IMG/VR virus record: IMGVR_UViG_3300031413_000586
Origin: an uncultured virus (IMG/VR IMGVR_UViG_3300031413_000586)
Lineage: Duplodnaviria > Heunggongvirae > Uroviricota > Caudoviricetes
Reading direction: 5' to 3' (one strand)
Length of the DNA stretch: 64,000 nucleotides
Position 1 is the stretch's first letter, and each line of letters starts with the position of its first letter. The translations under genes were made by a program, and so were the position numbers. Below the pieces are notes generated by a model. That model saw only the letters and a list, made by a program, of their open reading frames with translations, had not been told where the DNA came from and did not search any database. Positions 1,541 through 63,998 of the stretch are shown one piece after another.

Positions 1541-2971
1541 ATGAAAAACGTACCGTTTAAACGCATTCAACAAAAATTACAAAAAAGTGGAGTTCTCATT
1601 AATCGAGAGAATTCTAATGTACTCAGTATTACATCTACCAATGATGTGGGACTTGAATCAAAAATTCTATTACCTGATACTTTTGCCATTGAAGAGAAGG
1701 CTATTCATCAGTTATTGGATTTCGCTAAAATACAGCATCCAGATGGTGGGCATGTAAAATGTTCCTGTGCGACTCCTGACTTTCATACAGGCAGTACAAT
1801 TCCAGTAGGTAGTGTGGTAGTGACCAGTCACGATATGGTTATACCACAAGCCATTGGTACTGATATTAACTGTGGCATGCGATTACACAAACTTGATTTA
1901 ACATTTGATAGCTTTATGGCTAATAAAGAACTATGGGTTAAAAAGCTGAAAGGTGATTTATTGGAAGGAACCCGCAATATGCCAGTAACCCCATATGCTA
2001 TGAAAGCTCTATTTGATAATGGTATTGGAGATTTCTTTGAAGTTATGAAGAATTCCAAACAAGAAGGCATATTTGAAAAAATAGACTATGCTCAAATTAA
2101 ATTGGAAATGAGTAAACTGCATTCATCTGCTTTTGAAAAAGGCGAATCAAGTTATTCTCCTGATGCGTTACAAAACATGAGTCGTGATTTAATTCGCGAT
2201 CCATCAATGGGAACATTAGGAGGTGGTAATCATTTTTGTGAATTGCAGGTTGTTACCGAAATTACAGATAGACAGAAAGCCTATGAGCATGGATTGAAAG
2301 TCGGACAATTGGTTGTCATGATTCATACAGGTTCAAGAGATGTAGGTTTTTATGTAGGTCAACGTTGGGCTGATAAGGCCAAACAAATCTGGCCTAAAGG
2401 ACATAAGCATCCAGATAACAAAATATTTCCAATATATGGTGAGTTAGCGAATGAATACTTATTGGCAATGCACAGTGCTGCTCATTATGCTACTTTGAAC
2501 AGAGCCTTGATTGCTGAAATGGTACGTCAACGTACTATGGAAGTCTTTGGTCAAGTTGATTGTTCTTTGGTGGTAGATGTGCCACACAATATTGTATTAA
2601 AAGAAAAATTAGGCAATGTTCATCGTAAAGGAGCGACACCTGCTCATGCTGGTCAAGATCTGCTTATTCCGGGCAGTATGGGTCATGATAGTTATTTATT
2701 GTCTGGCTTGGGCAATGAAGATTGGCTAAGTTCTGCGAGTCATGGTGCTGGACGCAGTATTTCGCGTAATGAAATTTCTTTCAAAGGCCGTAAAGATAAA
2801 AGTCTATTGGGGCTTGATAGCGTTGAATGTATTACTCTGAAAGAAGAGCGAATGATTGAGGAAGCACCTGCAGCTTACAAGGAAATTGGACCAGTAATTC
2901 GCTCACAGGTTGAAGAAAAGACAATTTCAGTTATTGCCAAGTTTAGTCCGATATTAACCTTTAAAGCTTAA
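1541..2971 (+). CDS. rtcB: RtcB-family RNA ligase (3'-phosphate/2',3'-cyclic phosphate to 5'-OH)
   Basis: Motifs PDFHTG, IGTDINCGMR, GTLGGGNHFCE, IHTGSR, HN, HRKGAT, IPGSMG, SHGAGR, EEAPAAYK. Confidence 0.95.
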   Translation: MKNVPFKRIQQKLQKSGVLINRENSNVLSITSTNDVGLESKILLPDTFAIEEKAIHQLLDFAKIQHPDGGHVKCSCATPDFHTGSTIPVGSVVVTSHDMVIPQAIGTDINCGMRLHKLDLTFDSFMANKELWVKKLKGDLLEGTRNMPVTPYAMKALFDNGIGDFFEVMKNSKQEGIFEKIDYAQIKLEMSKLHSSAFEKGESSYSPDALQNMSRDLIRDPSMGTLGGGNHFCELQVVTEITDRQKAYEHGLKVGQLVVMIHTGSRDVGFYVGQRWADKAKQIWPKGHKHPDNKIFPIYGELANEYLLAMHSAAHYATLNRALIAEMVRQRTMEVFGQVDCSLVVDVPHNIVLKEKLGNVHRKGATPAHAGQDLLIPGSMGHDSYLLSGLGNEDWLSSASHGAGRSISRNEISFKGRKDKSLLGLDSVECITLKEERMIEEAPAAYKEIGPVIRSQVEEKTISVIAKFSPILTFKA

Positions 2972-25683: not shown

Positions 25684-26538
25684 ATGAAAGCGATTAGTTT
25701 GGTTAAAAATCCTATCAAAACAGAAGTCATTGAGTATGAGATTGCTCAACACCATGATATTCTGATTAAAGTCGATACTGCAGGTATTTGTCGTACAGAT
25801 ATCTATGCGGCTGAAAACAAAATTCAGACTAAGGAAACACTGGTATTGGGTCACGAATTTGCAGGTTATATAGAAAAATCAGAAAATTCTTTATTTAAAG
25901 AAGGTGACTTTGTTGTTGTTAATCCTATTTATGAAAATCTTTCCATGTTGGGTGTTGATCATGATGGGTGTTTTTCAAGTCATATCAATGTACCCAGTCA
26001 ACTGGTTTATCATTTTGGTAATTTTCATGATCATCGCATTCCCGCATATGTTGAACCTATTGCTGCTTCCTTGGCACCTTTGAAGAGTCGATTCATTCAA
26101 AAAGAGATGGTAGGTGCAGTGTATGGTGAAAATAGAATTGGAATGCTTACCTATGAAATAATGAAGAAACAAGGTTACAACATTGTAATTGTTGATCAAC
26201 ATCATGACATTGCAGACAATACTTTTGATTATGTAATTGAAACCTTAGCAGTAACAGAAACCTTTGATAAACTTTCAAAAATAATCAAAAAAAATGGTAT
26301 TTTAATATTGAAGAGTCGATATCCCAAGCATATTTCAGTTAATTTCTACGATTATGTTCGTAAAGAAATTTTAATTGAGCCTTTATATTATCATGATTTT
26401 GATTTTGCGATAGACTATGCTAAAAAAAACTATAAAGATTTTTTATATTTATTAGGCGACAGTTATGGTTTGAATAATTGGCAGTCGGCCTTTCATGTAA
26501 GTCAAACGGGTGATAAAAAGATTTTTTTCAAACTTTAA
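25684..26538 (+). CDS. zinc-dependent medium-chain dehydrogenase/reductase
   Basis: GICRTD and LGHE catalytic-zinc motifs, EP motif; no structural-zinc Cys cluster. Confidence 0.85.
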   Translation: MKAISLVKNPIKTEVIEYEIAQHHDILIKVDTAGICRTDIYAAENKIQTKETLVLGHEFAGYIEKSENSLFKEGDFVVVNPIYENLSMLGVDHDGCFSSHINVPSQLVYHFGNFHDHRIPAYVEPIAASLAPLKSRFIQKEMVGAVYGENRIGMLTYEIMKKQGYNIVIVDQHHDIADNTFDYVIETLAVTETFDKLSKIIKKNGILILKSRYPKHISVNFYDYVRKEILIEPLYYHDFDFAIDYAKKNYKDFLYLLGDSYGLNNWQSAFHVSQTGDKKIFFKL

Positions 26539-26551
26539 AAGGATAATATAT

Positions 26552-28408
26552 ATGTGTGGAATTGTAGGTCAAATATCATTTGATAAAAATACCAATAAAT
26601 ACTTTGTAAAAAAAGGACTAACATTGATCAGCCATCGAGGTCAAGATGATAGCAATTATATGGTTACAGATTATGTGTCTATCGGTCATAATCTTTTGAG
26701 CATTACAGGTGAAAAAACTCCACAACCTGTCACTAATCAAGATCGAACCATTTTTGCTGCAGTTAACGGGGAATTTTACAATTATGAGGATATCAAGAAA
26801 GAATTGAACATGAGTTTTCAAACTCAATCTGATTCTGAAATAATTATTCAGTTGTATCAACGTGGTTTATTGTTTAACTACTTGGAGAGTGGAAAACTAA
26901 ATGGTGAGTTTTCTTTCTTTTTATATGACAGCATCAAAAATAAAGTATTATTGGGTAGAGATTCTTTTGGAGTAAAACCACTCTATATTTATCGCGATAA
27001 TGAAAATGTGTATATTTCATCAGAAATTAAGGCTTTCCTTGCCTTGCATACCTTATCATTTGATCAAACATCCCTCTATAGTGTATTGTCTATGCAATAT
27101 CACGACACCTATAATACTCTTTTTGATGAAGTCAAACAAGTACAGCCGGGAACAGTATTAACAATTGATGTCAACAAACGTATCTTTTCAGAAGTTAATT
27201 ATTTCAAAATGCAATTTGAAGACAATAACCAATCTTTAGAAGACAATAAAATCATTCTTCTAGATAAGTTATCTCACAGTGTTAAAAGACGAATGAATAC
27301 TACAAAAAAAGTTGGTATTGCCCTTAGTGGTGGTATTGACTCAGCATCTGTATTGGCATTAGCGTCACAATACACCGATAAATTAAATGCCTATACCATC
27401 AGCTTTAAGAACGGCAAAGACTTTGATGAGTATCAAGCAGCAGAAGAAATGGCTAAAATGTATTCAGCCAATTTTAACCCTATCGAAGTAGATGAAAAAT
27501 TATTATTGGATAATCTTGAAAATTCAATCTACTATTCTGAACAAGTTTCTATCAATATGCATGTTGCGTCAAAATACTTATTGTTTAAAAAAATGTCACA
27601 GGATGGTTGTAAAGTGTCATTGAGTGGTGAAGGTTCTGATGAAATTTTGTTTGGTTATCCTCACTTTAAAATGGATATTGACTCAGTTTCAGGCATGGCT
27701 CAAAATACATATCTCAGTGGGCTTCAAGTACCTGATATCGACATGTTGAATACTGACGGTATTCAAAAATCTTTAGGTTATGTGCCTACTTTTTTAAAGG
27801 CAAAATACTCAATGGGTCATAAGATTCATAAGCATCTACTTCGTAAGGATTATGTTAACCAACATATTAACCATGATCCAGCCAGTTATATTATTCGTTT
27901 ATATGAATTATCAAAAGACACTCACCCAGTGTTCAATTCAAGTTTCTTGTGGACTAAGATTTGTATGAGTAACTATATTTTGAATGCTTTAGGTGATAAA
28001 TTAGAAATGGCCAGCACCATTGAAGGTAGGGTGCCTTTTCTTGATAGAGATTTTTATGACTTTGCTAAAACCATTCCACTTGATCAAAAGATTAAAGGAG
28101 CAAATGAAAAGTTTGTATTAAAAGAAGCGATGAAACCTTATATTTCTGAACGTATCTATAACAAACAAAAACATCCATTTATTGCTCCACCTTTATTTAA
28201 TTGGAAAAACAATAAACATGTCTATGAGCATTTGATGGATATTGTACATTCATCCACTATTTTGAACAGCCCTTTTTTTGATCAGAATAAAATTTTAAAC
28301 ATGATTGACTTGCTGCTGGAAGGAAAGTTGAATGCCAACACGTTTGATCCGGTGGTTATGATGATTTTCAGCTTGTATTATCTTGATAAGAATTTTTGTA
28401 AAGTATAA
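26552..28408 (+). CDS. asnB: asparagine synthase (glutamine-hydrolysing)-like amidotransferase
   Basis: MCGI N-terminus, HRGQD, NGEFYN, SDSE, RDSFGVKPLY, LSGGIDS, SGEGSDE, EGRVPFLD. Confidence 0.92.
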   Translation: MCGIVGQISFDKNTNKYFVKKGLTLISHRGQDDSNYMVTDYVSIGHNLLSITGEKTPQPVTNQDRTIFAAVNGEFYNYEDIKKELNMSFQTQSDSEIIIQLYQRGLLFNYLESGKLNGEFSFFLYDSIKNKVLLGRDSFGVKPLYIYRDNENVYISSEIKAFLALHTLSFDQTSLYSVLSMQYHDTYNTLFDEVKQVQPGTVLTIDVNKRIFSEVNYFKMQFEDNNQSLEDNKIILLDKLSHSVKRRMNTTKKVGIALSGGIDSASVLALASQYTDKLNAYTISFKNGKDFDEYQAAEEMAKMYSANFNPIEVDEKLLLDNLENSIYYSEQVSINMHVASKYLLFKKMSQDGCKVSLSGEGSDEILFGYPHFKMDIDSVSGMAQNTYLSGLQVPDIDMLNTDGIQKSLGYVPTFLKAKYSMGHKIHKHLLRKDYVNQHINHDPASYIIRLYELSKDTHPVFNSSFLWTKICMSNYILNALGDKLEMASTIEGRVPFLDRDFYDFAKTIPLDQKIKGANEKFVLKEAMKPYISERIYNKQKHPFIAPPLFNWKNNKHVYEHLMDIVHSSTILNSPFFDQNKILNMIDLLLEGKLNANTFDPVVMMIFSLYYLDKNFCKV

Positions 28409-28423
28409 ATTAAGGATAAAATA

Positions 28424-31126
28424 ATGAATTTTAAAGAAAAATTGTGGAACACAGCATATGCTAATAGGCACCTGAAAGCTATAGTGGATTTTACTTATAG
28501 TAAAGAATATACGTATCAAGACCTTATCGACTTTTCAGAAGGTTTTAGAGCAATGAATATTCAACATAAAAAGATTGGTATTTTTATGGATAAGTCTGCC
28601 GATTATATCGCTGCTGTGTTCTCTGTTACCTTGTCTAATAATTCTTTTGTTCCACTTGATCCTTCATTGCCTATCGATAGACTATCTTTTATTATAAATG
28701 ATGCCAATATTGATTGTGTGATGACCAATGAAAATTTTCATAAACATCAGTTACTCAGTAAAATTAATAAACCCATTGTACTATTGAAAAAGTCATCTTA
28801 TCAGCATGAAATTGTTTTTGAACAAGATGCTTTGTTTTACACTATCTATACATCTGGCACAACCGGAGTCCCTAAAGGGGTTGAGTTATCTTTTAAAGGT
28901 ATTGATAACGTAATTTCTCAACAAGTTGATTTGTTTGAACTTGATCATTCCAATATTTATCTATTTTTATCCATTAACTTTGATGCTTCATTGTCTGATA
29001 TTTATTGTTCTTTATATTCTGGTTCAACTCTTTTTATTGATGAATCAATCAAAAAAGAAATATCCAAATTTATTGATTTTGTAAAAGATAATACAATTAG
29101 CTATATAGACATTCCACCTTCTTTTATCAAATTAATCGATCCTAAAACAATGCCATCATTGAACAGTATTGTTATTGGTGGAGAAGTAGCGGATGCTAAT
29201 ACGGTGTGTGACTATGTAAAATACATGAAGGTCATTAATGTTTATGGCCCTACTGAGGCCACCATTTGTACAAGTTATTCGATATGTGATAAAGATTGGT
29301 CAATCCCGTACATTGGACAGCCTTTAAAAGGTGTAAGCTATGCTGTCTTCGACAATAATCTAAATCCTGTTGTCAGTGGAGAAGGAGAACTCTATATTTC
29401 TGGCATCCAGCTTGCTCTTGGGTATACGAACCCTAAGTTAACTACCGAACGATTTTTAAAAATCGATGATATTGTTTATTATAAGAGCGGGGATAAAGTA
29501 TCGGTTACACCAAATGGAATTGAGTTTATAGGGCGAATAGACCGTCAGATCAAGCATAATGGTCAATTAATCTGTCTGGAAGAAATAGAACAGACTATCA
29601 ATTGCTTAAAAGAGATAGAATCTGTTTCTGTTGTCTACAAAAATAAAAAACTATATGCATATTATGAAGGCAGTATAACAAAAGAAAAAATCATAGACTT
29701 TATTGGCTCCATGCTACCCACTTATATGATTCCACATTTTTTCATTAATAATATCATTCCAAAAACAGCTAATGGAAAGAATGACAGTAAATCTTTATCA
29801 AGTAGCAATACGCTATTTGAACATATACTAGGATTGTATTCAGTCATATTGGAAATGTCAGATATAGATGCCTCTAAATCTTTTCGAGAGTTGGGAGCCG
29901 ATTCCATCAATTTCATACAATTGCAGGAAGGCTTGAATAAGTTAGGTGTTTCCATCCCCTATAATTATCTTTTTGATAATAATACCATTGAAGACATTGT
30001 TAATTATAAATATTATCGACAATTAACCAAAAATGAGATTGTGATGGGCTTTGATTTTAAGACATTAAAATCACCTGATACTTTCAATTTCATATCAAAT
30101 CGTGTTGCTTTATGTACAGGAGCGAATGGTTCCTTGGGTATGCATATTCTCAACGATATTGTTGATCACTATGACAAGATCTATTGTTTAATCCGAGCAA
30201 ACAATTACAATGAAGCTGTTGATAAATGGCAAAAAAGTAAAGAAGATTTTTCAATGAATTTTAATGACAGTTCTATTATAATTGTACCAATTAGTAATTT
30301 AGCGGATCAATATATGGGCATGAACTTAGAGGATTATTATACGCTTAGTAAACAAGTTGGTCATATTTATCATAATGCGGCTAATGTCAATAACATGAAA
30401 ACATATAATGAATTGTATAATGACAATGTAATTGCCACTGTTAATGTTTTGAATTTTTCATTTACAGGTTTATTGAAAAAAGTTAATTATGCATCAACCC
30501 TATCAGTTTATGTATCAGGAGAGCATAGTCAAAATGCTATTTTTTATGAAGATGCATTAACAATAGATGATGAAATATTATTTAACGGCTATTCTCAAAC
30601 AAAATGGCTTTGTGACTATTTGATGACATATAGCAATCAATACAATACAATCAAACAATTTAGATTGGGACTTTTGGTGCCAGAGACATTTACTCATAAA
30701 GATCACAATTCATTTTTATACCAAACACTCAGCTTGTTGAAAGCAGCAGATACTGTTCCTTATGATATAAAAAAATCATGTTTTGATTTTACTCCTGTGA
30801 ATTGGGCATCTTCAATTATTGCTGCCATCTCTGTAAGTGATGATAGTGAACATATATACAATGTGACCACTAATAAAAAAGTTTATTATAGTACTCTTGT
30901 TCAACAATTGGATAAAGAAATTATTAATACTGCAACTTGGTTTAAAACGCATTCTGGTTATTTGACACAATTATTAAGTCAACTTTATAAGTTTGAATAT
31001 AAAGATATGAACCTGTTCGAGATGACATATGTTAACACTTTCGATAATGCTCATGTAAAAGCTTTCATTCCTGATAAATCTATAGACATAGACGCTATGT
31101 TGAAATCTTATATTGATAGTATTTAA
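28424..31126 (+). CDS. NRPS-like adenylation-thiolation-reductase (A-T-R) enzyme
   Basis: A domain YTSGTTGVPKG, FDAS, YGPTE, GELYISG, YKSGD, GRIDRQIK, NGK; carrier LGADS; reductase TGANGSLG, HNAA.VN, YSQTK. Confidence 0.9.
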   Translation: MNFKEKLWNTAYANRHLKAIVDFTYSKEYTYQDLIDFSEGFRAMNIQHKKIGIFMDKSADYIAAVFSVTLSNNSFVPLDPSLPIDRLSFIINDANIDCVMTNENFHKHQLLSKINKPIVLLKKSSYQHEIVFEQDALFYTIYTSGTTGVPKGVELSFKGIDNVISQQVDLFELDHSNIYLFLSINFDASLSDIYCSLYSGSTLFIDESIKKEISKFIDFVKDNTISYIDIPPSFIKLIDPKTMPSLNSIVIGGEVADANTVCDYVKYMKVINVYGPTEATICTSYSICDKDWSIPYIGQPLKGVSYAVFDNNLNPVVSGEGELYISGIQLALGYTNPKLTTERFLKIDDIVYYKSGDKVSVTPNGIEFIGRIDRQIKHNGQLICLEEIEQTINCLKEIESVSVVYKNKKLYAYYEGSITKEKIIDFIGSMLPTYMIPHFFINNIIPKTANGKNDSKSLSSSNTLFEHILGLYSVILEMSDIDASKSFRELGADSINFIQLQEGLNKLGVSIPYNYLFDNNTIEDIVNYKYYRQLTKNEIVMGFDFKTLKSPDTFNFISNRVALCTGANGSLGMHILNDIVDHYDKIYCLIRANNYNEAVDKWQKSKEDFSMNFNDSSIIIVPISNLADQYMGMNLEDYYTLSKQVGHIYHNAANVNNMKTYNELYNDNVIATVNVLNFSFTGLLKKVNYASTLSVYVSGEHSQNAIFYEDALTIDDEILFNGYSQTKWLCDYLMTYSNQYNTIKQFRLGLLVPETFTHKDHNSFLYQTLSLLKAADTVPYDIKKSCFDFTPVNWASSIIAAISVSDDSEHIYNVTTNKKVYYSTLVQQLDKEIINTATWFKTHSGYLTQLLSQLYKFEYKDMNLFEMTYVNTFDNAHVKAFIPDKSIDIDAMLKSYIDSI

Positions 31127-37555: not shown

Positions 37556-37819
37556 ATGGATTTTTTTAAATTAGAAGTTTTGGGAGCCATTTTAAGTTAC
37601 AATTTAGCTAAAATGGAAAGCTATGATTCAAGAAGCAATGGATTTATTTTGTATACCACTGATATAAATGAATTGGATGCACTAACTTTGCATACTCAGT
37701 TAAGAAAATTAACTATATCTGTTAATAATACACTTCAAATAGTAAGAGGTATAAAAATTAAAGAAATTGATAAATCAAAGGGTAAAATAGTTATTGTACA
37801 TAACATTATTCTTCCATGA
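37556..37819 (+). CDS. hypothetical protein
   Basis: AAGGAG RBS. Confidence 0.65.
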   Translation: MDFFKLEVLGAILSYNLAKMESYDSRSNGFILYTTDINELDALTLHTQLRKLTISVNNTLQIVRGIKIKEIDKSKGKIVIVHNIILP

Positions 37820-37826
37820 TATAAAT

Positions 37827-37852
37827 AAAAAAAGCACACTGCTGTGTGCTTT
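37827..37852 (-). terminator. intrinsic terminator closing the tRNA array (possibly bidirectional)
   Basis: aaagcacac-tgct-gtgtgcttt hairpin with an A7 flank (U-tract on the minus strand). Confidence 0.75.
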
Positions 37853-37867
37853 CTATTTATTGTTTAT

Positions 37868-37972
37868 TGGTCATCAACGCCTGCATCCTAACCTTACTCC
37901 CGCAAGAGGTAGCTTCACCCACCGGCTACTTATTAGGCAGCATTTCTAAGGCTCCTACCAACCCATCGTAAC
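37868..37972 (-). ncRNA. putative structured RNA ending in CCA at the distal end of the tRNA array
   Basis: GC-rich non-coding block; stems CCTAA/TTAGG, GTAGC/GCTAC, CTC/GAG, GGTT/AGCC; 3' end GATGACCA. Confidence 0.5.
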
Positions 37973-37992
37973 TACTGGTTTAACACTAAATC

Positions 37993-38076
37993 TGGTGCGG
38001 AAAGTGGGACTCGAACCCACACGCCTTTCGGCACTGGCTTCTAAGACCAGCGTGTCTACCATTCCACCATTTCCGC
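37993..38076 (-). tRNA. tRNA-Leu(TAG)
   Basis: Cloverleaf, anticodon arm CTGGT-CTTAGAA-GCCAG, long variable arm, A73, encoded CCA. Confidence 0.95.
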
Positions 38077-38144
38077 ATGTATAATTTTCAATATATTCTA
38101 CAATCTACATGATTATAAGAGGTAATTAAAAATACTGTATGATA

Positions 38145-38229
38145 TGGTGCCTCCCGTGGGACTCGAACCCACACTCCTTTCGGAAACGGATTTTGAATCC
38201 GTCGCGTCTACCAATTCCGCCAGAGAGGC
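38145..38229 (-). tRNA. tRNA-Leu(CAA)
   Basis: ACGGA-TTCAAAA-TCCGT, long variable arm, ACCA. Confidence 0.95.
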
Positions 38230-38242
38230 ATAATTTTATTAA

Positions 38243-38485
38243 CTAATCCCAACTAGGTAGCATTAAATGAACGACAAGGCATTCATTTTTTAGATATTGA
38301 GGCATTTTGCTATCTTTACAAAAATAAAATGCTTCTACTAATCTATAAGCTTCTGTATTGCTCAGTGAATCTTTACGATCAAGTTTGTCTTTTAGTGGTT
38401 TAATAGCAATCACTGAAGGCTCGTCTTGAATTTTTTGTAAAACTTCTTTTGCCTTTTCGCCAATATCTTTCATATCTAGTTCCAT
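38243..38485 (-). CDS. hypothetical protein inside the tRNA array
   Basis: 80-aa ORF with GAGGG RBS. Confidence 0.7.
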   Translation of the reverse strand: MELDMKDIGEKAKEVLQKIQDEPSVIAIKPLKDKLDRKDSLSNTEAYRLVEAFYFCKDSKMPQYLKNECLVVHLMLPSWD

Positions 38486-38525
38486 AAAAATTCCCTCTGT
38501 GTAGCTAGATCTAATAACTATTATA

Positions 38526-38609
38526 TGGTGCCCGAGGTCGGACTCGAACCGACAAGCCTTTCGGCGGAAGATTTTAAGTCTTCTGTGTTTACCTTTTCAC
38601 CACTCGGGC
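38526..38609 (-). tRNA. tRNA-Leu(TAA)
   Basis: GAAGA-CTTAAAA-TCTTC, ACCA. Confidence 0.95.
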
Positions 38610-38615
38610 ATAACT

Positions 38616-38699
38616 TGGTGCGGTTAGTGGGACTTGAACCCACAATCCTTTCGGCACTGGCTTCTTAGACCAGCGTGTATACCATTCCACCACAACCGC
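38616..38699 (-). tRNA. tRNA-Leu(AAG)
   Basis: CTGGT-CTAAGAA-GCCAG, ACCA; A at position 34. Confidence 0.92.
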
Positions 38700-38720
38700 A
38701 TAAATCTTTTAATCTATAAA

Positions 38721-38804
38721 TGGTGCGGAAAGTGGGACTCGAACCCACACGCCTCTCGGCACTGGCTTCTAAGACCAGCGTGTCTACCATTCCACCATTT
38801 CCGC
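38721..38804 (-). tRNA. tRNA-Leu(TAG), near-identical to 37993..38076
   Basis: One difference, in the variable-arm loop (GAGA vs GAAA). Confidence 0.95.
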
Positions 38805-38811
38805 ATAGACA

Positions 38812-39156
38812 TTAATACTTCTTTTCAATATAATTTAAATCAACATTTTCAAATATAAAACCTATATTGTTATTCTTACAACAATTTACTACATCTTGAT
38901 AGTTTTCAAAATCATTGGCATCATAATCAGGAATAATATCTTCATGTTCATACAAATCAATTAAACTATAACTCAACTCAGTTTCATCCACACCCGCGAT
39001 GTCAGCCCATTCTTTTCGAATAGAACGTTTAAAAACATATTCAGTAAAATCTTCTTTATGTGGTTCTGCAACTAAATCACCATCAAGAAAAATATTCCAG
39101 TAACGATTGTCGTATAAATTAACGATAATAATTTTACCTTTAACTGATTTCGTCAT
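38812..39156 (-). CDS. hypothetical acidic protein inside the tRNA array
   Basis: AGGTGG RBS before ATG 39156; the ORF-track start runs into a tRNA. Confidence 0.7.
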   Translation of the reverse strand: MTKSVKGKIIIVNLYDNRYWNIFLDGDLVAEPHKEDFTEYVFKRSIRKEWADIAGVDETELSYSLIDLYEHEDIIPDYDANDFENYQDVVNCCKNNNIGFIFENVDLNYIEKKY

Positions 39157-39222
39157 GTTTAACCACCTTTGTAAGAAAATAAAACATAAAGCTAATTCGA
39201 ACTTTTGATATTGAATTAAATC

Positions 39223-39307
39223 TGGTCCCCGGAGCCGGACTCGAACCGGCACGGCTTTCGCCGGGAGATTTTAAGTCTCCTGTGTCTACCAATTCCACCA
39301 TCCGGGG
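39223..39307 (-). tRNA. tRNA-Leu(TAA)
   Basis: GGAGA-CTTAAAA-TCTCC; acceptor CCCCGGA/TCCGGGG, ACCA. Confidence 0.93.
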
Positions 39308-39325
39308 ATAAACACATATTAAATC

Positions 39326-39409
39326 TGGTGCGATTAGTGAGACTCGAACTCACAAGCCTTTCGGCACTAGCTTCTGAGACTAGCGTGTATACCATTCCAC
39401 CATAATCGC
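39326..39409 (-). tRNA. tRNA-Leu(CAG)
   Basis: CTAGT-CTCAGAA-GCTAG, ACCA. Confidence 0.95.
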
Positions 39410-39427
39410 ATAGTTACATCTATAATT

Positions 39428-39513
39428 TGGTGCAGAAGGCAGGATTCGAACCTACAAGTCTTGATGACACCTGCCTTAACGGCTGGCACATTTACCAATT
39501 CTGTTACTTCTGC
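39428..39513 (-). tRNA. aberrant Leu-type tRNA, loop CGTTAAG (nominal anticodon TTA)
   Basis: Acceptor GCAGAAG/CTTCTGC-ACCA, T arm GTAGG-TTCGAAT-CCTGC, long variable arm; anticodon stem CCAGC/GCAGG has an A.A mismatch; G33. Confidence 0.7.
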
Positions 39514-39521
39514 ATATAATT

Positions 39522-39605
39522 AATGAGAGAAGGGATTTGAACCCTCACGTCCTTTTGGACATGTCTTCGTTAAGACATTATGGCTACCAATTTCATCACT
39601 CTCAT
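39522..39605 (-). tRNA. aberrant Leu-type tRNA or pseudo-tRNA, no encoded CCA
   Basis: Acceptor ATGAGAG/CTCTCAT, T arm GAGGG-TTCAAAT-CCCTT, variable arm GTCC-AAAA-GGAC, anticodon arm ATGTC-TTAACGAA-GACAT (8-nt loop). Confidence 0.6.
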
Positions 39606-39699
39606 TACGGGTCTACTTTAATAATACTAGAATATAGCTTAATTAGTACGTTTTAAAGTTTCTAAAAGTCTTAGAGCGACCCAGTTTAACTTTTTAAAT

Positions 39700-39783
39700 T
39701 GGTGCGGATAGTGAGACTTGAACTCACACTTATTTCTAAAGCTGCTTTTGAGACAGCCGCGTCTACCTTTTCGCCACATCCGC
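39700..39783 (-). tRNA. tRNA-Leu(CAA)
   Basis: GCTGT-CTCAAAA-GCAGC, ACCA. Confidence 0.93.
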
Positions 39784-39829
39784 ATATTGTTTGTTTCTTT
39801 GAAGTCTTTCTTAACTCTTCATGTTGTAC

Positions 39830-39858
39830 ATTCTATCAAGTCTTTTTGTTGTTGTCAA
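39830..39858 (-). promoter_or_regulatory. sigma70-type promoter of the tRNA array
   Basis: TTGACA-17 nt-TAGAAT with extended TG; A-rich UP-like tract upstream. Confidence 0.75.
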
Positions 39859-39948
39859 CATTTATTTTGTATTATTTTATTTTATTTTCCTTTTAAATCA
39901 ATAGTTTAACTTATTTAAGATTGAACAGTACCCTAGACTTTCGCCCAT

Positions 39949-40054
39949 AAAAAAAGACCCTTTAGGGGTCCAGATGCGAAATAAGACGATTGTTACTTTT
40001 GGTCTGTTCTGCATCTGGACAATCTAGTTGTCCTAAAATGCAGACAAATAGATA
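39949..40054 (-). promoter_or_regulatory. attenuator: alternative protector / antiterminator / terminator hairpins
   Basis: Terminator GACCC-CTAAA-GGGTC-T7; GTCCAGATGC (40020-40011) is perfectly complementary to GCATCTGGAC (39977-39968), which overlaps the terminator 5' arm; protector TCTGCAT..GGACAA/TTGTCC..ATGCAGA (40044-40008). Confidence 0.75.
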
Positions 40055-40114
40055 CTAGCCCAAGCTAAATAGTGAGAGTAAGAGTAACAGTGATAATCGA
40101 ACAGTGGTGAACAT
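40055..40114 (-). CDS. Leu-rich leader peptide MFTTVRLSLLLLLSLFSLG (19 aa)
   Basis: GAGGA RBS, 8 Leu codons (5 consecutive), own promoter, followed by attenuator hairpins. Confidence 0.8.
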   Translation of the reverse strand: MFTTVRLSLLLLLSLFSLG

Positions 40115-40139
40115 TTTTTTCGTCCTCGTTAATATGCTT

Positions 40140-40168
40140 ATTTTATCAAATCTAGATTTCAAAGTCAA
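40140..40168 (-). promoter_or_regulatory. sigma70-type promoter of the leader peptide
   Basis: TTGACT-17 nt-TAAAAT with extended TG. Confidence 0.75.
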
Positions 40169-40169
40169 A

Positions 40170-40979
40170 TCATTCTTCGGGTACATTTTGACAAATTGCA
40201 CAATAATAAGTGCCACGTCCATTTTGTTTTATTTTGGTGACTGGGTGTTTGAGTTTATCAAACTTTTTTCCATAGACGTTAAAGTTGTCTTGAAAGCTGC
40301 CTTCTTGATCAAATGCATCTCTATAATCTGATATGGATGATCCGCCTTGTTGAATAGCTTTTTCTAAAATAGATTTTGTTTCGGCTACCAGTTGAGTGGC
40401 CTTTTCTTTTGTCAAATCTTGAGCCTTTGTCAAAGGGCTTATTTTACATATATACATCAGTTCAATCACATAGATATTGCCTAATCCAACTATATAGGAT
40501 TGGTCTAGTAGAAACTGTTTGATATTCTTTTTATTATTACGAGTCATGGCATAGAGAGTTTCAGGGTTAAAGTCGTTTGACAAAGGTTCTATGCCTAATT
40601 TTTTTATATATTTATTTTCATTTGCATTATCTTCATAAGTTACAAATCCAAATTTCCTGATGTCACTGTATATGAGAAATGTCCCATCTGTAAATTCGAT
40701 ACCAACTCGATTGAATTTATCTTCAATCAAATGATTTTGAATCAAAAACTTTCCAGTCATTCCTAAGTGGGCAACAATTTCACCTTTCGAAAGTTTGAAA
40801 ATAAGAAATTTCCCTCGACGAACAACATCAGTAACTGATTTATTGACTAATTGGTTTTCAAGATCCATTTGTACTGGTTCACGTAACCGATTGTTCCAGA
40901 TGGTTACTTTTTTTACCACCTTGTTTTTGATTCCGACTAATGAATTGACAACACATTGTACTTCTGGTAATTCTGGCAT
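40170..40979 (-). CDS. mutM: formamidopyrimidine-DNA glycosylase
   Basis: MPELPEV, RRGK, HLGMTG, D.RKFG, LLDQ..+.GLGNIY, R.TYYC..CQ (first half of the zinc finger degenerate). Confidence 0.95.
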   Translation of the reverse strand: MPELPEVQCVVNSLVGIKNKVVKKVTIWNNRLREPVQMDLENQLVNKSVTDVVRRGKFLIFKLSKGEIVAHLGMTGKFLIQNHLIEDKFNRVGIEFTDGTFLIYSDIRKFGFVTYEDNANENKYIKKLGIEPLSNDFNPETLYAMTRNNKKNIKQFLLDQSYIVGLGNIYVIELMYICKISPLTKAQDLTKEKATQLVAETKSILEKAIQQGGSSISDYRDAFDQEGSFQDNFNVYGKKFDKLKHPVTKIKQNGRGTYYCAICQNVPEE

Positions 40980-46559: not shown

Positions 46560-48929
46560 ATGAAGGTTGTATATTTTTTATCCGCTATGCCGGGAACAGG
46601 TAAATCTACATTTATTAGAGATAATGGTTTAGAGGCTCATACACTTTCTTTAGATACAATGAGACACGTATATGCAGGAGCGATTACTGATTATGATGGT
46701 AATCTTGTACTTTCTAATTCAAGAGAAGATTTCGTCTTTGGTAAATTCATGGAGGCACTTGATTCACGTTTACAGCTAGGTGGTACTTTATTCATTGATA
46801 ATTTAAATCCAGATCAAAAATCGATTGATAGCTATTTGGATATCATAAAAAAGTATGATTACGATTATAAGGTTATCAAGTTTCCACTACAGCATATTGA
46901 TTTTTATTACATGCGAAATCAACAAAGAGAACAATATAAACAGCTTCCTAAAGAAGCTATAGATAGAAATTACGTTACATTTACTGCTGCTAATTTTAAT
47001 AGCACAACAAAAATTGTAACTCCTGAGCAAGCCGTAAAGGAAATTTTTGCAAAAGCTGATGATTTATTGATTGATTTGAATCAATACAATAAGATTCATT
47101 TTATAGGAGATCTTCAAGGTTCTTTTTATCCTATTAAAAAATATTTTGAACAAGAAGGTGGTTTAAAGAAAAACGAATTTTATCTCTTTGTAGGTGATTA
47201 TATTGATCGTGGCATTGAAAATGATAAATGTTTTCATTTCATAAAAAAATATATGGAGTATGAAAACGTTCTATTATTGGCAGGTAATCATGAAAAGCAT
47301 TTATACAATTATAGCCATGAGTTGTACACCCCACCTGATGAGTTTATGCATAATACTCTACCTCAACTTATTAAGGCTGGTATAACCAGTGAGGATATGA
47401 AAAATGTCTATCGTCATTTAGAGCTATATAGTTTTATGCAATATGATGATAAGAAAATAATGGCAACTCATGCTGGGTTAACCGCTGTACCTGTATACCC
47501 TCGCCTATTGACTGCCGATGAATATATGAGAGGTTTTGGTCCTTACAGTTATGATGTTGATGGTAAATTTGAAGAAATGAATACAGATAACGAATGGTTT
47601 CAAGTTCATGGACATAGAAATCAGCATAAATTAGGATTTGAAAGTTATAAAAAAAGTTTTGCTCTAGAAGCCGATGTGGAATATGGTGGAAGTTTACCAG
47701 TGCTTAGATTGAACCGTGAAGGATTTAATGGTGTTTATATTACCAATAGTGTCTTTAACAAGGCGAAAGTGTTAAGTGACGAAAAAGAAAAAGATATGTT
47801 TGCTGTTAAAACAACTGAACATGGACTTTCAGAATTTTTATCCACAAAAATAAACCACATCAAGTCGGGTTTGGAAATTATTAAAGAATTGAGAGGCAAT
47901 CCTTCCATAAAAGAACAAGTGTCTGCTAATCTACCATATTTGTCAGCTTTTAATTTTACCGAAAATGTGGTTTCTGATACGAGATCGGATAAAGATCTAG
48001 TGGTACAAGCTCCGGGCTTGTTTATCAACAATCAGACAGGAGAAATTGTTGCTCGTGGTTTTGATAAATTGTTTAATATCAACGAAGCAGGCATTCAATC
48101 TGCAGCAATGGAAAATGTGAAATTAAATTTGAAAGGCAAGATAAGTTTATATGAAAAAGAAAATGGAACTCTTGGTATTATAGGCTATGATTCACAGTCC
48201 AATAATCTTGTTTACGCTTCCAAAGATTCTATTGATGGAGCATTCTCTGGTTATTTGAAAGAACTTGCATCAAAGCAATTTTCTTCAAGCGAATTACAAT
48301 TTATGCAAATATATGCAAATAAACATAATGTAAACTATTTATTTGAAGTTAATGATACTGCAAATGATCCTCATATTATTAAATATGATCAACCACATCT
48401 TGTGTTAATAGGTATTGTTAAACGCGATTTTAAATTTTCTCAATTAAAGATAGAACATTTAGAAAGTTTTGCGGCTAATTTTGAAAATTTAACAACGAAG
48501 AAAAGATTTGCTAATTTCACTACATCAGATAATTTTGAAAAATTTTATATGGCTGTTATGAAAGAAAGTGCTTTAACTACCAAGCGTCAATTAGAAGGAT
48601 ATATTTGCGAAGATGAGTCGTTGAATATGATTAAGATAACACTTCCTTATTACAACTTTTGGAAATGCATGGATGACTTTGCACAGGATATTAACAAAGG
48701 CATTGAAAAAGATAGTGCATTCAATATAGCTAAAAAAGTCAATACTACTTCTTTGATACAGGACTCTGATAAAGCTATTGCCATCAAATTCTTAGAATAT
48801 GTTAAAGAATTACCTACAAATAAAAAAGAGTATAGTATTATTGCATTAAGAGATGATTTTCTGGCTAATAATGAGGGTCTTATCAATTCAATTAATACTT
48901 TACCCAAGAAACCAAAAATGAAACCATAA
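46560..48929 (+). CDS. trifunctional RNA repair enzyme: polynucleotide kinase + metallophosphoesterase + Rnl1-like ligase
   Basis: P-loop AMPGTGKST; GDLQG, GDYIDRG, GNHE, THAG, VHGH; ligase RGFDKLFN, EKENG, FE, EGY. Confidence 0.88.
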   Translation: MKVVYFLSAMPGTGKSTFIRDNGLEAHTLSLDTMRHVYAGAITDYDGNLVLSNSREDFVFGKFMEALDSRLQLGGTLFIDNLNPDQKSIDSYLDIIKKYDYDYKVIKFPLQHIDFYYMRNQQREQYKQLPKEAIDRNYVTFTAANFNSTTKIVTPEQAVKEIFAKADDLLIDLNQYNKIHFIGDLQGSFYPIKKYFEQEGGLKKNEFYLFVGDYIDRGIENDKCFHFIKKYMEYENVLLLAGNHEKHLYNYSHELYTPPDEFMHNTLPQLIKAGITSEDMKNVYRHLELYSFMQYDDKKIMATHAGLTAVPVYPRLLTADEYMRGFGPYSYDVDGKFEEMNTDNEWFQVHGHRNQHKLGFESYKKSFALEADVEYGGSLPVLRLNREGFNGVYITNSVFNKAKVLSDEKEKDMFAVKTTEHGLSEFLSTKINHIKSGLEIIKELRGNPSIKEQVSANLPYLSAFNFTENVVSDTRSDKDLVVQAPGLFINNQTGEIVARGFDKLFNINEAGIQSAAMENVKLNLKGKISLYEKENGTLGIIGYDSQSNNLVYASKDSIDGAFSGYLKELASKQFSSSELQFMQIYANKHNVNYLFEVNDTANDPHIIKYDQPHLVLIGIVKRDFKFSQLKIEHLESFAANFENLTTKKRFANFTTSDNFEKFYMAVMKESALTTKRQLEGYICEDESLNMIKITLPYYNFWKCMDDFAQDINKGIEKDSAFNIAKKVNTTSLIQDSDKAIAIKFLEYVKELPTNKKEYSIIALRDDFLANNEGLINSINTLPKKPKMKP

Positions 48930-51306: not shown

Positions 51307-51957
51307 TTACCCAGTTGTGTTGCAATCATAGCATTTACAGGCGGATTTAGCAACCTTTTCTTCAAGATCTTGTATCCTCTTTAATAGAACATTATATATA
51401 TATTCTGATTCGGCATTAAGACTTGGAAGATAATAGCCATAAATTTTTTCTATATTATAATTTTCATCCAATTTAATGACTTGAACCTTTGATTTCAAAT
51501 CAGTAAGCAGTTCAAGTCCATCAGTTAAACGATAGTCATGAATATAGAAAACTCTTTTTATGCCACTTTGAATGATTCTTTTTGAACATTCGATACATGG
51601 AATATGAGTAACAAAAAGAGACGCATTTTTGATACTTAATGTGCTTTGTTCGGCTTTGGACATACCATTGGCTTCTCCATGAAGGGTAATTGGGTTTGTA
51701 ACGTCCTGACCCGGCAATTCACATGTATTATCAAAACCTGAAGGTGTACCATTATAACCCATTAACATTTCATTGTTTTGTGTGACAATCAGTGATCCTA
51801 CTTTTAATCGGCAACAATAAGACAGTGTACTTATTTGAAGTGCCATTGTCATATAGGTACTTATGAATTTTTGTGAATGATGTTTACCCAGCTTTTCCAT
51901 TTCATTACTTATTTCTTCTTTATTCAAAAGTTCGTTAAATTTTCCAAAGTTTGACAT
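51307..51957 (-). CDS. dCMP deaminase
   Basis: KVG, GYNGTPSG, HGEAN, PCIEC. Confidence 0.88.
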   Translation of the reverse strand: MSNFGKFNELLNKEEISNEMEKLGKHHSQKFISTYMTMALQISTLSYCCRLKVGSLIVTQNNEMLMGYNGTPSGFDNTCELPGQDVTNPITLHGEANGMSKAEQSTLSIKNASLFVTHIPCIECSKRIIQSGIKRVFYIHDYRLTDGLELLTDLKSKVQVIKLDENYNIEKIYGYYLPSLNAESEYIYNVLLKRIQDLEEKVAKSACKCYDCNTTG

Positions 51958-63320: not shown

Positions 63321-63998
63321 TTAAACATTTTTATCTACAAACATACCACAAGAGGCTTTAACGTCAAAACCAACTTTTGGCACTATACGGTAGTTGTCAG
63401 GTTTAAGCAGACCAGCAAGGATTTCAGTGTTTCTATTGATCGTTTCGATATCAGACTCTTCTCCATATTTAGGTGAATAAGGGTTGTACCTAACGATATT
63501 AAAATTAACTTTTAGATCAATATCATTAATGGCATTTGCAATATTAACAACATCTTCTTCGCTATCGTTTTCTCCTTTGATAAAGGCAAAGTGTATTTTA
63601 GGAATTTTTCCATTATATTCTTGCCATTGTTTCAATAATTCCAGACTTCTTTGATAAGGAAGTGCCCTCGCCAACCATCTTTTTCTAAATTTTTCATTGG
63701 TGCTGTAAATCGAATAGTATATATCAGGTGTTGTTCTTGGAAATATACTCACTAATGTTTTATTACCGAGATCTTGTGGCATTATAGTAGAGATAAGGTG
63801 TTTGGCTTGAAGATTTCTGTTACTTGCTAATCGTTCAAGTTCTCTAAATAAAGTTTCATTATCATTTAAAATAACAGGATTGTTCAAAGCTTCTCCACGA
63901 GCCATAAAGTTATAATGTATTATTTGGGCTTTTTCAGGCAATTGATCGTAATGGCTATAAACAAGCTCTGCTTGTTTTAGAAAATCTTCTAAAGTAGC
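63321..63998 (-). CDS. RlmN/Cfr-like radical SAM protein, 5' part outside the window
   Basis: NFMARGEAL.N, IST, NDS, YNP, DVKASCG; frame open to the window end. Confidence 0.75.
   Translation of the reverse strand, partial: ATLEDFLKQAELVYSHYDQLPEKAQIIHYNFMARGEALNNPVILNDNETLFRELERLASNRNLQAKHLISTIMPQDLGNKTLVSIFPRTTPDIYYSIYSTNEKFRKRWLARALPYQRSLELLKQWQEYNGKIPKIHFAFIKGENDSEEDVVNIANAINDIDLKVNFNIVRYNPYSPKYGEESDIETINRNTEILAGLLKPDNYRIVPKVGFDVKASCGMFVDKNV

Follow-up and report, generated by a model that had tools for sequence, protein, structure and literature searches.

Leader-peptide attenuation is textbook knowledge for amino-acid biosynthesis and is exemplified by the enterobacterial amino-acid operons, with the leu leader leuL and the multivalent thr and ilv leaders. 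The components of such attenuators, i.e. a short translated open reading frame (ORF) with a run of cognate codons, alternative 1:2, 2:3 and 3:4 hairpins and a terminator before amino-acid-linked genes, have counterparts in the DNA described here, a stretch of 64,000 nucleotides (referred to as the window) from an uncultured virus (IMG/VR record IMGVR_UViG_3300031413_000586). In the window they precede an array of tRNA-Leu genes at 37993-39783. With moderate confidence, the locus is interpreted as a tRNA-Leu supply operon under feedback regulation, equipped with a codon-sensing leader and belonging to a jumbo-phage-like element. Unlike in the enterobacterial attenuators, the regulated genes are tRNAs and not biosynthetic enzymes, the leader stop codon precedes segment 1, the ribosome signal appears to be relayed by an additional hairpin (H0), and a second promoter follows the terminator. 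No Rfam leader family matched, so there is no kinship in sequence.

Attenuation by a leader peptide is also known for a gene of the translation apparatus, since pheM is the leader attenuator of the E. coli pheST operon. The leaders found before synthetase genes of a related genome (see below) resemble this case; unlike pheM, the design described here reaches tRNA operons and is located on a phage-like element. Tandem tRNA genes on large phage-type genomes are known from T4, T5 and jumbo phages, where they probably serve codon supply or evasion of defence. In contrast to these clusters, the present array covers a single amino acid with all its isoacceptors, and specificities are placed in separate arrays, each with its own codon-matched leader. 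A tandem operon of tRNA-Leu genes is likewise present in E. coli (leuQPV), but consists of three identical CAG copies, whereas five anticodon types, diverse bodies, ORFs and aberrant tRNA-like genes are found here. T-boxes also sense the state of a specific tRNA and control translation-related genes by a terminator/antiterminator switch. They bind uncharged tRNA directly and need no leader ORF; the present locus has a leader ORF, and no T-box was detected. In full-text literature searches, which cover neither supplements nor subscription journals, no paper on leader-peptide attenuation of tRNA genes was found.

Leader/terminator cassette and tRNA-Leu array

The cassette comprises approximately 390 bases between the gene for Fpg and the first tRNA gene, and had been overlooked in an earlier note on this DNA. 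It was compared with the corresponding regions of two relatives, a 181-kb viral-collection contig (G001) and a 90-kb metagenome contig (L003). All elements are on the minus strand. Directly after the Fpg stop codon lies the promoter-like sequence P1 (TTGACT-17-TAAAAT, 40140-40168; 10 of 12 matches, TG before the -10 element), which is kept in both relatives. A Shine-Dalgarno (SD) sequence (GAGGA, 40123-40127) is located 8 nt before the ATG of a leader ORF of 19 codons plus stop (MFTTVRLSLLLLLSLFSLG, 40055-40114). Eight of the 19 codons encode Leu (TTA three times, CTC twice, CTG, CTA and TTG), including a run of five. The same ORF is present in both relatives, where the leader reads MFTTIRLSLLLLSSLLLSLG. 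Hairpin H0 (40022-40053) begins 2 nt past the stop codon. In the folds, segment 1 (40028-40044) can pair with segment 2 (40008-40022) as a long 1:2 hairpin, and segment 2 pairs with either segment 1 or segment 3. The latter (GCATCTGGAC, 39968-39977) is a perfect 10-bp complement of segment 2 and overlaps the 5' arm of an intrinsic terminator (GGACCCC-TAAA-GGGTC followed by seven T, 39949-39971), which separates the leader from the tRNA genes and is kept in both relatives. It is followed by a conserved block (TTGATTTAAAAGGAAAA, 39885-39901), by a second promoter-like sequence, P2 (TTGACA-17-TAGAAT, 39830-39858; 11 of 12 matches), and by a conserved start region (CATGAAGAGT, 39814-39823); the first tRNA gene begins at 39783. 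Block and start motif are confined to tRNA arrays (one place in the window, two in G001).

For the RNA after the leader stop codon, the minimum-energy fold of each of the three genomes consisted of H0 and the 2:3 antiterminator (-34.1, -36.5 and -39.6 kcal/mol). Folding of the full leader yielded the 1:2 hairpin plus terminator in the window and G001. The 10-bp 2:3 pairing competes with the terminator arm; its connection to the position of the ribosome is a purely geometric deduction.

Across the three genomes the cassette has a mean column identity of 73%, with Fpg proteins 66-67% identical. All three sequences agree in the pairing arms but differ in the linker that joins segments 2 and 3, and the L003 terminator is retained with two changed pairs. 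In G001, an extra ORF separates Fpg from P1; the cassette therefore travels with the array and not with Fpg. Among 1700 small ATG ORFs of G001, a single one contains at least 40% Leu and at least five Leu codon types, and this is the leader. In the window, 35 of 41777 stop-free stretches of 19 codons (8 places) reach eight Leu codons of five types. Searches of 37700-40300 for the Rfam Leu_leader, other leader families and T-boxes gave no match at E<=10. A crude automatic screen of the window for further leader cassettes yielded none that was convincing, and also missed known ones.

The ten tRNA-type genes that ARAGORN detected in the window are confined to the minus strand of 37993-39783; neither ARAGORN nor Rfam found a tRNA elsewhere in the 64 kb. 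The marks of a canonical tRNA-Leu (long variable arm, A73, Leu anticodon and a 7-nt loop with U33) are present in eight of the ten. In the order of transcription these are tRNA-Leu(CAA) (39700-39783), tRNA-Leu(CAG) (39326-39409), tRNA-Leu(TAA) with a C1-G72 body (39223-39307), tRNA-Leu(TAG) (38721-38804), tRNA-Leu(AAG) (38616-38699), tRNA-Leu(TAA) (38526-38609), tRNA-Leu(CAA) (38145-38229) and tRNA-Leu(TAG) (37993-38076). All eight were called by both ARAGORN and Rfam, the latter with 54-63 bits (cut-off 29). Several statements of the earlier note were thereby corroborated: the eight genes and their positions, a long variable arm, A73 and encoded CCA in all of them, the readability of all six Leu codons, and the anticodon stems ACGGA/GCTGT of the CAA pair and GAAGA/GGAGA of the TAA pair. 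Its description of the array as exclusively Leu has to be amended, as two aberrant tRNA-like genes and two ORFs also lie inside. The Leu-only pattern is not due to chance, since the arrays of L003 and G001 show it likewise at the syntenic place.

The operon is closed by an intrinsic terminator (37829-37854, minus strand), and the arrays of G001 and L003 also end with a terminator. Between it and the last tRNA gene lies a G+C-rich segment of approximately 130 nt (37860-37992, minus strand), which is absent from both relatives and folds no better than shuffled sequences (z-score -1.3). When the array was compared at near identity with 50,697 phage records, just tRNA-sized matches of 80-90% were returned, and the CAG tRNA had no match in E. 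coli genomes.

Contigs assembled from two RNA libraries matched the locus with 0 differences at 40132-39930 (leader unit), 39804-39586, 38913-38677 and 38561-38209, and with 4 differences at 39306-38959. The leader-unit contig begins at 40132, 8 nt past the -10 element of P1, and several contigs join tRNAs to ORFs. Two raw-read RNA runs (X22 and X23) yielded 0 reads and were not a test of expression.

Codon-matched leaders and tRNA genes of related genomes

A 3.8-kb metagenome fragment (L002) encodes an identical Fpg protein and carries the same tRNA genes in the same order. In L003 (Fpg 66% identical, gene order common with the window), Fpg is followed by eight ARAGORN tRNA-Leu calls alone (AAG, CAA, TAG, TAG, TAA, TAA, TAA and an odd CAA), corresponding to seven canonical tRNA-Leu genes and one aberrant long-arm gene called Leu(CAA). 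The L003 leader has no CTG and its array has no tRNA-Leu(CAG), which is a single observation. G001 is classed in its collection as a provirus, with a completeness estimated at 58%. It is collinear with the entire window: of the 73 window ORFs, 59 find a match in the same order (24-90% identity). Its syntenic array (array A) consists of 13 genes, i.e. eleven tRNA-Leu, one degenerate TTG gene and one odd gene with an 8-nt anticodon loop.

A second G001 array (array B) is located ~77 kb further, at 155735-158248 (L058 5735-8248), and contains six tRNA-Ala, two Arg-TCT, one Arg-CCT, two CAT genes and one aberrant gene. All 27 Rfam tRNA matches of G001 fall in its two arrays; in this lineage, specificities are sorted into separate arrays. 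For comparison, an unrelated 394-kb phage (G002) carries an ordinary mixed array of 40 tRNA genes. Amplification of other amino acids had been named in the earlier note as the finding that would make Leu unremarkable, and it is partly borne out by the six Ala, three Arg and two CAT genes behind the same kind of cassette. Array B therefore indicates that Leu is the most amplified specificity of the lineage, not the sole one.

Upstream of array B lie P1, SD, a leader, a terminator and a P2 that hardly differs from the one of array A. Its leader (MNIQLTIRARAIS, containing IRARAI) has the consecutive codons ATA AGA GCC AGA GCG ATA. All six are readable by array B tRNAs, provided that one CAT gene is tRNA-Ile2, an assignment which is presumed here from similarity. 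Runs of at least six such codons occur just three times in all six frames of the 181 kb, and one of them is this leader. Small ORFs followed by a terminator were also found before three synthetase genes of G001: the isoleucyl-tRNA synthetase leader contains IIII (NSIIIIPK; L094 16275-16520, minus strand), that of a non-discriminating aspartyl-tRNA synthetase (above the NCBIfam cut-off) contains DNNDN (ADNNDNF; L092 2070-2405, plus strand), and that of the prolyl-tRNA synthetase contains PLP (RPLPL; L089 6570-7160, minus strand). Five kinds of cassettes thus match the specificity encoded downstream; no other finding speaks as strongly for a sensor function of the Leu leader and against an ORF that arose by chance. 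Directly observed are the genes and sequence elements, the degree to which they are conserved, and the match between leader codons and specificity. A search of viral contigs for further Fpg proteins gave no relative, and a deoxyribosyltransferase search of genome contigs gave one 42% match, located in an unrelated metagenome-assembled genome.

Bodies of tRNAs with the same anticodon differ in the window (TAA pair 80% identical, CAA pair 69%), except for the TAG pair (99%). Counterparts are recognisable across genomes; the C1-G72 TAA gene, for example, shares 98% identity with a copy in G001 and 91% with one in L003, and a pattern scan for it found G001 only. Anticodons change on kept bodies: in L003, the body of the window TAG gene carries AAG and that of the window AAG gene carries TAG, and G001 has two nearly identical copies of which one is TAA and the other CAA. 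Such swaps fit with the fact that leucyl-tRNA synthetase does not read the anticodon. The earlier suggestion of a dedicated, sequence-diversified Leu set therefore holds in part: non-duplicate isoacceptor bodies are 56-88% identical, but Leu is not treated uniquely, as array B shows.

Position 37 is A in all CUN-reading tRNA-Leu genes of the lineage (four of four in the window, five of five in G001, three of three in L003). In bacteria, CUN readers normally carry a G37 that is methylated by TrmD; G37 was found in E. coli leuW and leuQPV and in the CUN readers of phage G002, a small baseline of one bacterium and one phage. A37 would fit with independence from a G37-directed modifier or nuclease.

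Leu accounts for 9.1% of the codons in the window (TTA 34%, TTG 26.5%, CTT 20%, CTA 9.7%, CTG 6.3% and CTC 3.1% of these). tRNA copy numbers roughly track this usage, with four of eight genes reading TTR, i.e. 60% of the Leu codons. Array B holds classic rare-codon tRNAs (AGA, AGG and probably ATA). Leu usage and array B are consistent with an AT-rich element that supplies tRNAs for its own codons in a host whose tRNA pool differs.

Proposed mechanism and alternative explanations

In the proposed mechanism, one transcription unit extending on the minus strand from ~40168 to 37829 would supply the full set of tRNA-Leu isoacceptors. The constitutive-looking P2 would drive the tRNA genes, and P1 further upstream would transcribe the translated leader, the hairpins and the terminator. 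During fast reading of Leu codons, a ribosome at the stop codon would cover the 5' arm of H0 (the footprint of a ribosome is ~12-15 nt), 1:2 would pair, the 3:4 terminator would form and P1 transcripts would end. When charged tRNA-Leu is short, the ribosome would stall on the Leu run (40096-40061), H0 would form and segment 2 would be free for segment 3; the 2:3 pairing (10 bp) would block the terminator, and P1 transcripts would extend into the tRNA genes. Such switching, in the direction and for the purpose given here, is probable. The purpose would be to keep Leu decoding adequate where the host tRNA-Leu pool is mismatched (TTA, TTG and CTT dominate) or becomes depleted during infection. 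The cassette suggests demand-regulated supply, whatever causes the shortage.

With this logic, attenuation would appear to close a loop on decoding itself, in that a slow codon calls up the tRNA reading that codon. If true, the locus would show how large phages regulate tRNA genes, and synthetic circuits could take over its natural sensor, which responds to the decoding speed of specific codons. The question of why phages carry tRNAs would become testable locus by locus, each leader naming the codons of concern.

Several points weigh against this interpretation. P2 lies after the terminator; the attenuator would therefore only add to basal transcription and could not gate all of it. There is almost no covariation because the helices are invariant in the three sequences, and the terminator alone has changed pairs. 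Taken alone, the variety of Leu codons in the leader does not reach significance (p = 0.22 in the window, 0.30 in L003, 0.04 in G001), and the hydrophobic peptide of 19 residues could be a product in its own right. Minimum-energy folds of array B gave no clear antiterminator. The RNA evidence consists of assembled contigs that carry no strand and no true start or end, and carry-over of DNA is possible. Finally, the element is only tentatively a phage replicon, since homologues of RtcB and of a protein encoded within the array (ORF114), both at 68-90% identity, are located on contigs of 1.04-1.86 Mb, which to our knowledge exceeds any phage genome.

One alternative is a plain, unregulated array for codon compensation, in which the small ORF is incidental or an independent micropeptide and the hairpin with its T-run just terminates Fpg. 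P2 alone can drive the tRNA genes, and both the rough agreement of copy numbers with codon usage and the non-significant codon diversity of the leader would fit such an array. It is nevertheless considered quite unlikely: P1, SD, ORF, switch arms and terminator are kept as a unit even in G001, where an ORF lies between cassette and Fpg, the perfect 10-bp competitor of the terminator is conserved, and leaders match the downstream specificity in five cassettes of the lineage. A different role for the tRNAs would be the counter-defence proposed in the earlier note, i.e. a replacement set of diversified tRNA-Leu that resist a host nuclease or modifier; the aberrant genes might then be decoys. This role would be compatible with an attenuator that detects the damage. 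For other amino acids, the consulted parts of three papers (PMC10264068, PMC11555353, PMC13056530) document phage tRNAs that escape anticodon nucleases, and such a function would be in line with the diverse tRNA-Leu bodies, with A37 in all CUN readers of the lineage versus G37 in the compared genes, and with a CCA-less tRNA-like gene that retains its cloverleaf while the anticodon loop varies freely. RNA repair enzymes are also encoded in the window, namely RtcB (1541-2971, plus strand; Pfam E 2e-94) and a Pnkp-like kinase-phosphatase-Rnl1-type ligase of 789 aa (46560-48929, plus strand; homologues in Bacillus and Staphylococcus phages, ~30% identity), and G001 adds HAD_SAK_2, RNA-ligase and kinase PHROG matches. 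The repair genes are, however, 7 and 35 kb away from the array, the same kind of cassette in G001 precedes amplified Ala, Arg and CAT tRNAs, and the G37 baseline includes no host tRNA-Leu. In addition, the consulted parts of PMC13056530, PMC10264068 and PMC13273310 contained no Leu-specific bacterial antiphage nuclease. Counter-defence as the primary role is thus regarded as unlikely.

The third alternative is that the DNA is part of a small bacterial chromosome and the array is that organism's own tRNA-Leu operon. Cell-type genes (GAPDH, AsnB, TrxB, ClpA, transporters, OmpA-like proteins and synthetases), the alternating gene orientation and the close homologues on megabase-sized contigs would fit, and Pfam scans of 64 window ORFs and 95 G001 ORFs outside the window-syntenic regions detected no family of capsid, portal or terminase proteins. 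Against this, no Pfam family was assigned to most proteins (41 of 64 in the window, 66 of 95 in G001), and 29 of 30 unknown proteins had no NCBIfam family. Genes for ribosomal proteins, RNA polymerase or rRNA were not detected in the window or in the 95 of 188 G001 ORFs scanned, the RNA search of G001 being restricted to tRNA. Several proteins match strongly only families or genomes of jumbo phages of 230-635 kb (hosts Pseudomonas, Ralstonia, Xanthomonas, Erwinia and others), e.g. phrog_27142 at 1e-68 and phrog_14850 at 1e-60, and ClpA-like genes of giant phages are 40-43% identical. Moreover, G001 is filed as a viral contig, and a reduced genome would not normally carry 11 Leu plus 6 Ala tRNA genes in 181 kb. 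The DNA is thus probably a jumbo-phage-like element, and a cellular origin is judged improbable.

The preferred interpretation as a demand-regulated supply operon can be extended, although this extension is speculative and rather doubtful. The leader might sense the availability of tRNA-Leu and not of leucine, and so register when host tRNA-Leu is lost or scarce, also through cleavage by a defence nuclease; in response, the phage would transcribe its A37 copies, which are independent of G37 modification. Codon-resolved sensors of this kind would then stand before every tRNA block and synthetase gene of the lineage, and the CCA-less RNA might be a decoy or regulator in the same conflict. The A37 change and the conserved non-canonical tRNA-like gene are leads into phage-host conflict over tRNA.

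Aberrant genes, ORFs and other features of the element

The two aberrant tRNA-like genes are adjacent and on the minus strand. One has a long arm and the anticodon TTA (39428-39513; ARAGORN, Rfam tRNA 44.3 bits). A73 and CCA are present, but U33 is replaced by G33 and the anticodon stem contains an A.A mismatch. It has no clear counterpart in G001 (best identity 73%) or L003 (66%), and an exact-pattern scan gave 0 matches. As TAA is the main stop codon and ends 44 of 62 ORFs, efficient TAA suppression would be costly and the gene is probably a decaying or weak copy. A role as ochre suppressor or in TAA recoding was rejected on the grounds of the aberrant loop (G33, A.A) and this stop codon usage.

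The other gene (39521-39606; ARAGORN) also has a long arm and an anticodon loop of 8 nt (TTAACGAA). It combines an 8-bp acceptor stem with a 5-bp T stem and a 3-bp D stem, ends without CCA and has no Rfam tRNA match even at E<=10. Its counterparts are located at L057 9233-9318 (minus strand) and L003 12221-12304 (plus strand), and the G001 counterpart scores 33.8 bits with the Rfam tRNA model. Compensatory changes have preserved every stem (acceptor, D, anticodon, variable and T) across the three genomes, and the anticodon loops vary in sequence and length (8, 8 and 7 nt: TTAACGAA, TTCGCTTA and AACAAGT). Judged by this sequence comparison, the gene encodes a conserved structured RNA. tRNA-Sec and allo-tRNAs are marked by a UCA anticodon, a 6-bp D stem or an 8/4 or 9/3 geometry. 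Assignment to either was rejected: the 8-bp acceptor stem fits, but the D stem has 3 bp and both UCA and CCA are absent. A pattern scan of viral contigs for further members yielded 27 stretches; in the 26 that were not from G001, ARAGORN detected no tRNA at the match, and 8 carried an unrelated tRNA-Arg.

Two ORFs with SD sequences lie on the minus strand inside the array. The smaller (80 aa, 38243-38485) is absent from G001 and L003 and belongs to no Pfam or PHROG family. ORF114 (114 aa, 38812-39156), located between tRNA genes and preceded by a strong SD (AAGGTGG), has just 12 homologue clusters with 68-90% identity. In G001 it is 90% identical, above almost all other proteins. No Pfam or PHROG family was found for it, and its AlphaFold2 model reached a pLDDT of 82.7 yet had no fold match (best E 0.95 in Foldseek against the PDB; best Z 4.1 in a wide VIA-align search).

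The window has a G+C content of 30%. SD motifs were found at 46 of 73 crudely called ORF starts, and the giant-virus promoter motif AAAATTGA was not enriched (21 found, 23 expected). An origin from a giant eukaryotic virus was therefore rejected, and translation is of the prokaryotic type. At least half of the sampled words were present in runs labelled phyllosphere (three), dairy (two) and two coded organisms (three). The named proteins comprise RtcB, the Pnkp-like kinase-phosphatase-RNA ligase, ClpA, GAPDH, AsnB, a nonribosomal peptide synthetase (NRPS)-like reductase, NadR, TrxB, Fpg, UvdE and a dCMP deaminase. The latter (51307-51957) had been considered as a phage TadA that would form I34 on tRNA-Leu(AAG); this was rejected, since the matches are to dCMP deaminase (ComEB 2e-22, PDB 4p9c 6e-32, as compared to 1e-3 for TadA).

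At the end of the window, an ORF at 63321-63941 (minus strand), which may run off the window end, encodes the phrog_27142 member. It shows a weak likeness to the C-terminal half of RlmN/Cfr (E ~1e-6, far below cut-offs). At 25684-31126 (plus strand), an ADH-like gene, an asparagine synthase gene and a gene for a 900-aa adenylation-carrier-reductase (NRPS-like) protein are arranged in a run. This run is conserved in L003 and may constitute a small biosynthetic module.

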